From: Schmidtea polychroa
Lineage: Eukaryota
Length of the DNA stretch: 64,000 nucleotides
Direction of reading: 5' to 3'
NCBI GenBank assembly: GCA_044892525.1
Contig: CM097885.1
Location: 204,600,001-204,664,000 of the forward strand
Shown: one piece after another, positions 41,389-42,777 of the stretch
Layout: each line of letters begins with the position of its first letter
Numbering within the stretch: position 1 is the stretch's first letter
Program-made: the position numbers and the translations under genes
The notes under the pieces: generated by a model
The model's database searches: none
Seen by the model: only the letters and a program-made list of their open reading frames with translations
Told to the model about the DNA's origin: nothing

Positions 41389-42777
41389 ATGGATAAGCGA
41401 CAACGAGAAGAATTCAAAGAAATTGTTGAACAAGTCAGAAAGTCCACCACAATTCGAATACACAACCATGTAACGTGTGGAATATGCAAGGGATTGTTAA
41501 GAGAACCTCACCAAACCAGATGTGGATGCAGAATGTGCAAAGAATGTGTAGAGGAGATAATAAAGAAGGGACCACAATGGTGCCCAGTATGTAAAGAAAC
41601 CATGATAACAAGTTTGGGAGATACAAACGAAGATAAAGCAGCCGTGAAAGATATGTTAAATTCAAATTTAGGATGTAAAAACACCCCATGCAATTGGCGA
41701 GGAGTGATATGGGGAGTGAAGCAACATATAGAGAAGTGTGAGTATAAAATCAGTCAATGCGAACGTTGCCAGGAAGAGATTAAAGCAAAAGAAGAAGAAG
41801 AGCATCAAAGTCGATGCGTAGAAAGGTTAGAAAAATGTGAATATTGCGGAGAGACCGATACCCGAAGGAAATTAACTAGTCAACATCATAATTTACAAGA
41901 GGAAAAAGTATGCGCGGAATTCAGAGGAGAATGTCCCAATAAATGCGATAAATCTGGAGTAATAAGACTCGCTCAACATCTCAGAGAATGTGAAAGGAAA
42001 AAGATAACGTGTGTGCTAGGAAAATGGGGATGTCAGAAACAATTACACCGAGGAGAATTACCCCAACATCTAGCAGAAAACGTATCAACACACGCGGAAA
42101 TATGGTCAACGGTATTACAAGAAAACGAAAGGAAAACCGAAAACTTAGAGAAAGAAATGGTCTCGCTAAAAGCGTTGGTAAAAGAGTTATTGGAAGAAAA
42201 GGAAGCATTTGAAGAGGCGAGAACAAGTACAAAGATACAGACAGATCTAGTGGAAACTAGCAACATTATGGTGAAAGAACTACATCAAAAAGTAAGCGAA
42301 TTAAACCTCAACGAATTAATACCAACGGCTCCATACATATGGAAAATAACGGGAGTAAAAGAGAAGATGCAGAGAGCGAGAAATGGAAAGGATACAACAT
42401 TACTAAGTCCAGCATTCTACTCATGGAAAAACGGGTATAAAATGAAAATGAAAGCATACCCCAATGGGGATGGAAGTGCATACGGAACGCATTTCTCAGT
42501 ATTCTTCTTGATGTGCAAAGGGCTATATGACGAGTTAATAGAATGGCCATTCAAAGCAAAAATAGACCTCGCAATGATGAACTATCAAAGTATACATGAA
42601 CAGAGTTTCCATACAGCGGGAAACCTCGTATGTTACCAAAGGCCCTTGGAAGAAGAAGGATCAGCAACCGGAGCACCGAATTTCATCCTACAGCGGAAAG
42701 TAGAAGACATGACGAGAAACGACACTATATACATAAAAATAGCGGTGAGGCGAGACGGGAAGAGTAGGACTGAGTAG
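41389..42777 (+). CDS. traf: Full-length intronless TRAF homolog (RING, TRAF zinc fingers, coiled coil, MATH)
   Basis: CGICKGLLREPHQTRCGCRMCKEC...CPVC; repeated C/H zinc fingers; YIWKI...SPAFY...GYKM...YPNGDG...THFSVFF...GLYD..IEWPF...NDTIYIKI. Confidence 0.95.
   Translation: MDKRQREEFKEIVEQVRKSTTIRIHNHVTCGICKGLLREPHQTRCGCRMCKECVEEIIKKGPQWCPVCKETMITSLGDTNEDKAAVKDMLNSNLGCKNTPCNWRGVIWGVKQHIEKCEYKISQCERCQEEIKAKEEEEHQSRCVERLEKCEYCGETDTRRKLTSQHHNLQEEKVCAEFRGECPNKCDKSGVIRLAQHLRECERKKITCVLGKWGCQKQLHRGELPQHLAENVSTHAEIWSTVLQENERKTENLEKEMVSLKALVKELLEEKEAFEEARTSTKIQTDLVETSNIMVKELHQKVSELNLNELIPTAPYIWKITGVKEKMQRARNGKDTTLLSPAFYSWKNGYKMKMKAYPNGDGSAYGTHFSVFFLMCKGLYDELIEWPFKAKIDLAMMNYQSIHEQSFHTAGNLVCYQRPLEEEGSATGAPNFILQRKVEDMTRNDTIYIKIAVRRDGKSRTE

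Follow-up and report, generated by a model that had tools for sequence, protein, structure and literature searches.

We have identified a complete, intronless TRAF gene carried as cargo by a Burro-like LTR retrotransposon of Schmidtea polychroa. The whole stretch of DNA analyzed, here called the window, is 64,000 nucleotides long, and all positions refer to it. Our leading reading, to which we give somewhat better than even chances, is that the gene would be a host adaptor captured long ago that favors the survival of element-expressing cells; behind it we rank, in descending order, a decoy, the seeding of host genes, a role internal to the element and a passenger. The direct basis of the capture reading is the location of the gene, its complete set of domains, its element-type synonymous sites and its grouping with planarian-type TRAFs.

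Background

An expansion of the TRAF family has been reported in planarians (PMC6109357, PMC7586133), planarian TRAFs are described as required for cell survival (PMC7586133), and the cause of the expansion has been called unresolved (PMC8807557), in each case according to excerpts of these papers. Available sections of PMC6431247 describe a MATH_TRAF_C domain within ORF1 of Burro1/GYPSM1 of Schmidtea mediterranea and TRAF/MATH domains in Burro-2 to -4. The same sections propose that Burro elements meddle in apoptosis and ubiquitination, and state that the elements occur in thousands of copies. Lee et al. 2026, as cited in an excerpt of PMC13465017, found that the Burro1 IAP protects stem cells from apoptosis.

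On the strength of those sections of PMC6431247, TRAF/MATH cargo in Burro elements, including cargo on a separate accessory ORF, is already known, which makes our finding less surprising. What is new is a full-length form of TRAF at a 3' position, what may be a second capture, and the motifs in the spacers, all described below. In the literature covered, which mostly leaves subscription papers outside its scope, we found no report that places a full-length TRAF downstream of pol or links the TRAF expansion to elements. The excerpts of PMC6109357, PMC7586133 and PMC8807557 contain no link between Burro and the TRAF expansion; PMC8532177, PMC11410931 and PMC13238120 make no mention of TRAFs, and PMC13563047 treats TRAFs and not Burro. 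Grohme 2018, Lee et al. 2026 or their supplements may already show the TRAF ORF.

Results

The TRAF gene sits in a 30,084-bp element (19895-49978) in which Gag is followed by protease, reverse transcriptase, RNase H and integrase (PR-RT-RH-IN), the order of Ty3/Gypsy LTR elements. The LTRs have TG..CA ends, are flanked by a 4-bp target duplication, and are 99.48% identical, standing 18 substitutions apart. Inspection of 45880-45911, directly before the 3' LTR, revealed no obvious polypurine tract. The features of the element outside the TRAF gene and its adjoining spacers are as follows.

19895..23958, + strand: 5' LTR, 4,064 bp with TG...CA ends; target duplication immediately upstream, at 19891-19894
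22656..23417, + strand: LTR-internal ORF of 253 aa, no Pfam match; second copy at 48676-49437
23966..23983, + strand: putative primer-binding site, 7 nt past the 5' LTR, which we take to resemble a tRNA-Pro site
24392..24871, + strand: accessory ORF of 159 aa, IAP-type (cIAP/XIAP-like) C-terminal RING (E=1.2e-8), no BIR
26912..40690, + strand: long frame, 4,592 codons in a single frame with two in-frame stops
40940..41299, + strand: accessory ORF of 119 aa, no Pfam match above cut-off
43062..44033, + strand: accessory ORF of 323 aa, charged and coiled-coil-like, no family found
44210..44932, + strand: accessory ORF of 240 aa, charged and coiled-coil-like, no Pfam match
44977..45651, + strand: accessory ORF of 224 aa, one predicted membrane segment
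45912..49978, + strand: 3' LTR, 4,067 bp; target duplication immediately downstream, at 49979-49982

The long frame encodes, in sequence, a Gag with three CCHC knuckles, a ubiquitin-like module, a BCL2-like module, an env-like fusion glycoprotein, protease, a dUTPase-like module, reverse transcriptase, RNase H, integrase with a GPY/F tail, and ankyrin repeats (Ank_2, E=3.9e-20). Its in-frame stops lie at 29846-29848 and 32354-32356. Between Gag and protease, and in frame with both, lies the env-like region, which matches PF24664 twice (E=1.5e-26 and 7.9e-46). The ubiquitin-like (E=0.004), BCL2-like (E=0.021) and dUTPase-like (E=0.21) assignments are weak matches below cut-off that occur in the order described for Burro, and a comparison of the BCL2-like stretch with PDB sequences returned two matches, both irrelevant. 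A short hydrophobic motif recurs nine times in 26912-40690, several times at module borders (before protease and between integrase and ankyrin), and represents possible protease cleavage sites. Upstream of the long frame, the ORF with the IAP-type RING has a helical N-terminal region; a BIR was found neither by Pfam nor by its characteristic spacing in six frames. An atlas look-up with the 323-aa ORF gave only weak bacterial matches of low recognition.

The element is Burro-like by layout and is not Burro1, the comparison with the Burro group being by published description. According to the available sections of PMC6431247, it shares with Burro1/GYPSM1 a length above 30 kb, multi-kb LTRs, a giant frame, a Gag with three CCHC knuckles and an env between Gag and protease, together with PR-RT-RH-IN, ankyrins, MATH/TRAF-C and an IAP-related module; the ubiquitin-like, BCL2-like and dUTPase-like modules of Burro1 have possible counterparts in the three weak matches here. 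Burro1, as described there, has its MATH inside a 4,873-aa ORF1 and possesses a BIR (a BIR-RING module), whereas the frame of the present element is without MATH, its complete TRAF is a separate gene 3' of that frame, and its IAP-type RING is without BIR. A Burro-like element of Dugesia tigrina is described in the same source as bearing MATH/TRAF-C on a separate accessory ORF, as here; that ORF, however, lies upstream of ORF1 and only MATH is named in it, whereas the present gene lies downstream and combines RING, five fingers, coil and MATH.

Elsewhere in the window, related LTR relics, older and interrupted (74-78% identity), together with two more diverged paralogs of the LTR ORF, occur at 5794-12492, 8655-9029 and 51223-51444, all on the - strand. 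An ORF of 427 aa with a DUF4371 (transposase-associated) domain lies at 16764-18047 and ends near a run of N at 18071-18215. A 14-nt tandem array and clustered local duplications are found outside the element at 610-1411 and 55251-58221. The flanks of the element are AT-rich; they, the layout of the element and a named triclad protein in the clade of the TRAF (see below) would fit a triclad host.

Five accessory ORFs follow the long frame on its 3' side, and the TRAF gene is the second of them. Its features and those of the adjoining spacers are listed here.

41300..41388, + strand: spacer before TRAF, 89 nt, AT-rich, with UGUAHAUA at 41319, 41329 and 41368; a TAG resembling an acceptor stands 2 nt ahead of the TRAF start
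41389..42777, + strand: full-length TRAF, an uninterrupted ORF of 462 aa, identified by Pfam, PDB relatives and fold model
41476..41592, + strand: RING, aa 30-68, eight Cys ligands with Cys47 in place of His, Pfam E=1.4e-4
41674..42093, + strand: five zinc fingers, aa 96-235, the third with an insertion typical of the planarian-type clade
42094..42300, + strand: TRAF-N coiled coil, about aa 236-304
42334..42747, + strand: MATH/TRAF-C domain, aa 316-453, Pfam MATH_2 E=2.7e-25
42778..43061, + strand: spacer after TRAF, with UGUAHAUA at 42793, 42806 and 42818 just past the stop and copies of AATAAA further on

The protein has the make-up of the TRAF family, with a C-terminal MATH/TRAF-C domain, a TRAF-N coil before it, and a RING and five zinc fingers at the N-terminal end. 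The closest solved structures by sequence are TRAF3 (E 5.6e-28) and TRAF2 (E 1.9e-26). Fold comparison of the MATH domain with those of TRAF3, TRAF2 and TRAF1 gave a Foldseek probability of 1.00, and the N-terminal part aligns with RING-finger structures of TRAF6, TRAF5 and TRAF2. In the predicted model a long helix spans aa 232-304 (mean pLDDT 79.4) and is aligned to the TRAF3 coil. The gene and its best relative, P0019 (37% identity), align over their full length with gaps of at most two residues, so the gene hides no intron. The first-pass annotation had described a complete intronless TRAF situated past integrase and before the 3' LTR. The domain set and the gap-poor alignment bear out the first part of this description. 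The placement is true and loose: the gene begins about 3.9 kb past the integrase tail, from which it is separated by the ankyrin extension and the 119-codon ORF, and three further ORFs follow before the 3' LTR.

Vertebrate TRAF2/3/5 share the arrangement of RING, five fingers, coiled coil and MATH and, among PDB structures, come closest to the element protein in both sequence and fold; it differs from them in the Cys for His in the RING, in an altered groove serine patch, and in an identity of about one third in the TRAF domain. In the MATH groove, K355, Y357 and D361 stand opposite TRAF2 R393, Y395 and D399 (the numbering we assume for these groove positions), the same as in the rest of the clade. 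A homotrimer predicted for aa 236-456 scored 0.81, compared with 0.04 for the best of three controls, and model runs showed contact agreement of at least 97% and partner pLDDT of at least 85; TRAF trimers have already been solved, so the prediction may reproduce these known structures and indicates likeness only. In microbes, 21 of 30 solved pairs and none of 23 single chains attained the mark applied to such predictions; in eukaryotes the figures were 17 of 29 and 0 of 30, respectively.

By alignment, Cys47 of the RING occupies the His position of TRAF2/5/6. A RING of this Cys type was present in 21 of 98 matches in which the pattern could be read (167 examined, 69 unread), among them the Dendrocoelum lacteum protein named 'TRAF-5' (P0036). 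The substitution that had been singled out at the outset is real, and as a special or decoy feature it is rejected: it is clade-wide and common to a named planarian TRAF, so it is no decoy marker. The finger-3 insertion and the pattern of the MATH groove are likewise found in P0036; this protein is only 31-34% identical to the element TRAF, which differs from it further in being element-borne and in having an element-type codon bias. Among the TRAF6 residues to which an excerpt of PMC5702613 assigns roles in building K63 chains, alignment shows I72 kept as I32, L74 replaced by K34, R146 by W108 and R125 by K87. The TRAF6-type K63 ligase set, consisting of the Ubc13-binding Ile/Leu pair and two ubiquitin-contacting arginines, is accordingly incomplete in the element TRAF. 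Since these residues are only partly kept, an adaptor role is likelier than that of a TRAF6-type ligase, and judged on its residues the protein is probably an adaptor and not a TRAF6-type K63 ligase.

The composition of the gene is that of the element. Its purine fraction is 0.654, compared with 0.59-0.66 in the long frame, and its fourfold sites (A/C/G/T 85/21/28/10) match those of the long frame (836/203/290/170; p=0.45). They differ from those of three ORFs outside the element (92/40/39/110; p=2e-11), a thin host proxy in which one ORF is transposase-like. The A/G-rich, element-like composition claimed for the gene was thus confirmed, as was the long residence in the element deduced from it, because its synonymous sites match the element and not the flanking ORFs. 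Across 462 codons, all RING and finger ligands are retained; with synonymous sites fully drifted, the keeping of every zinc ligand would point to selection during replication of the element.

The uninterrupted state of the frame is a different matter. From the divergence of the LTRs (K=0.0044), 0.2 new stops would be expected in TRAF, with a probability of 0.82 of finding none, and 1.8 in the long frame, in which 2 are seen. The gene is intact, as the first-pass annotation had stated; the observation is uninformative, since intactness is expected in a copy so young, and we reject it as a sign of host co-option. The present copy is young and decaying neutrally, and selection would have acted on the element lineage. 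The 253-aa ORF in the LTR, with a dN/dS of 0.07 against an older inverted copy, is under purifying selection, which indicates that accessory ORFs in this element family can be under selection.

The spacers between the accessory ORFs contain a recurrent motif, UGUAHAUA, which we take to be a Pumilio element. Five spacers (40691-44991, 857 nt) hold nine sense-strand copies compared with 0.8 expected (p=0.019 once any motif of like shape is allowed for), and six of the nine flank TRAF. The 13.8-kb long frame has none, and neither does the LTR on its sense strand. The motifs may alternatively be TATA-like promoter sequences. A role of UGUA as a polyadenylation signal is less likely, since Schmidtea is reported, in an excerpt of PMC5068929, to lack UGUA poly(A) signals, and AATAAA occurs in the spacers 6 times against 6.1 expected.

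A T-rich tract with YAG no more than 4 nt from the ATG precedes five of seven ORF starts, including that of TRAF, compared with 11 of 520 other ATGs, with the YAG rule and one of the starts having been picked after looking at the sequence. Acceptor-like T-rich YAG sites were noted just before the starts at 22656, 24392, 41389, 44210 and 44992, and another lies upstream of gag, at about 26652. The position of YAG before ORF starts suggests cis- or trans-spliced subgenomic messages.

Relatives were sought among 1.84 billion representative sequences, which gave 6,256 matches. Among the best 150 of these, the closest relatives of TRAF are 37-40% identical, and there is no close host-like one; a word-indexed homolog search yielded 17 matches at 24-28%. 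TRAF is 29-40% identical to the members of the planarian-type clade that were found. A quick tree built on the N-terminal half (TRAF plus 45 matches chosen by score and coverage) places it in a 14-row clade that includes P0036 (SH-aLRT 99). With 24 chosen rows, a careful tree of the full-length proteins recovers a 16-row planarian-type group (78/95), in which TRAF belongs to a 5-row branch (99/99). A quick tree of MATH only (107 rows; 106 of 167 matches kept) resolves only the pairing with P0019, at 84, and not the planarian-type clade. A tree had been named as a check in the first-pass annotation, and it places the gene with planarian-type TRAFs, firmly in the N-terminal half and at only 78/95 in full length.

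The 5-row branch consists of TRAF, P0019, P0029, P0035 and P0109, which have a similar bias toward Glu, Lys and Arg. P0029, P0035 and P0109 have deletions, have lost the MATH domain and have the look of decayed copies. Composition and decay suggest that these four relatives are other copies of the element, with the limit that the bias index is unspecific, being high also in P0036, P0023 and P0088. The other 11 rows of the 16-row group are mostly of ordinary amino-acid composition. An element lineage nested in a wider, mostly unbiased planarian-type radiation would fit host-to-element capture better.

One further relative, P0027, has a TRAF that is read in frame with a preceding stretch resembling the GPY/F tail of the integrase in the window (42% identity over 38 aa, E=7e-7; 1 of 167 matches). 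P0028 and P0033, both of ordinary composition, share 49-50% identity with P0027, and its joining to the branch of TRAF is rejected (AU p=0.0008, for a grouping named after earlier trees had been seen). If element-borne, P0027 is a possible second, independent capture of a TRAF; it may also represent an element fragment that lies in frame ahead of a host gene. A search of 4,115 candidates 869-2,480 aa long brought up no TRAF-polyprotein fusion of greater length, a weak negative because this range omits an ORF1 of Burro size.

Discussion

In the explanation that we favor, a planarian-type host TRAF (TRAF2/3/5-like) would have been captured as a processed, intronless gene by a Burro-like ancestor and since then copied and selected as cargo of the element. 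The protein would be made from a processed subgenomic RNA, as the acceptor-like AG before the start and the flanking Pumilio-like motifs suggest. It would trimerize via its coiled coil and MATH domain, dock on the tails of receptors or adaptors, and bias host death or innate-immune signaling so that element-expressing cells survive, acting alongside the IAP-type RING and the weak BCL2-like cargo of the element. Evidence for this explanation comes from element-type synonymous sites combined with retained ligands, the biased and partly decayed 5-row branch, the MATH groove kept as in the clade, cargo of the same pathway within the element, the selection seen on the LTR ORF, the protection of stem cells reported for the Burro1 IAP and the need of planarian cells for TRAFs to survive. 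The direction of any effect on death signaling is not fixed by this comparison: ISKNV ORF111L, an iridoviral TRAF, is likewise a TRAF of a genetic parasite that acts on host death signaling, but it comes from a large fish DNA virus and promotes apoptosis, according to an excerpt of PMC3352826, and it is likened to the element TRAF by description alone.

An unlikely alternative, although one that deserves attention, is a dominant-negative decoy that enters host trimers or blocks receptor tails without ubiquitination and so damps anti-element signaling. The partial loss of the K63-chain residues (L74, R146 and R125 replaced) and the intact coiled coil and MATH domain agree with it. Yet Leu at the L74 position is found in no row of the alignment (A1), and the RING Cys extends through the clade, so that the losses are not peculiar to the element. 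TRAF2 apparently does without E2 binding and is nevertheless a normal adaptor, and the RING and all five fingers, which a pure decoy does not need, are kept. Of the initial suggestion of a decoy or modulator, a modulator role remains plausible, while the Cys RING as a decoy feature falls away. We regard as improbable the proposal that the element drives the planarian TRAF expansion, its copies having seeded many host TRAF/MATH genes. The 121 MATH domains and 282 MATH contigs reported from Schmidtea transcriptomes (known to us from excerpts), whose cause is called unresolved, are in keeping with seeding, as are the copy numbers in the thousands given for Burro elements and the occurrence of TRAF/MATH cargo in several element settings. 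Against it, only 5 of the 16 rows in the group (TRAF included) are element-like and most of the other 11 are ordinary, and P0027 lies near the ordinary P0028 and P0033 and away from the branch of TRAF; this distribution argues for repeated host-to-element capture. Moreover, identity to the clade members found does not exceed the range given above, and the 64-kb window holds a single TRAF copy, with no second MATH and no non-element TRAF paralog.

We hold it to be very unlikely that TRAF serves the cycle of the element itself, for example in ubiquitin-linked handling of polyprotein or particles. The element does possess ubiquitin-like, RING and env-like modules, but the receptor-binding MATH groove is kept as in host-type TRAFs, and the cargo set maps onto a single host death pathway. 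Least credible of all is a recent, neutral passenger picked up by the present copy. Intactness in a young copy has no bearing on it, whereas the wholly element-like synonymous composition, the distance of even the best relatives and the sharing of the spacer motifs with other accessory ORFs speak against it. Capture of a host adaptor, selected as cargo, remains our preferred reading. A broader version of capture is speculative and, in our estimate, rather unlikely to hold in full: Burro-type elements would have taken up host TRAFs several times independently (inside, upstream or downstream of ORF1, or fused to the integrase tail), within a death-signaling cassette under Pumilio control, and these mobile TRAFs would account for an appreciable part of the planarian 'TRAF expansion' and support stem-cell survival, in the manner reported for the Burro1 IAP.

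Conclusions

The planarian TRAF expansion still lacks an explanation, and cargo of Burro1 has been reported, in the excerpts available, to aid regeneration. A complete TRAF riding on a high-copy element, and shaped by it, means that host and element genes may be pooled in published counts of TRAFs and in RNAi aimed at TRAFs. The gene provides a concrete second cargo for testing mutualism between host and element, or manipulation of the one by the other, and a testable candidate for how such elements influence the survival of host cells. If true, the repeated capture of one signaling family by one group of retroelements would have its counterpart in large DNA viruses, which capture immune genes.
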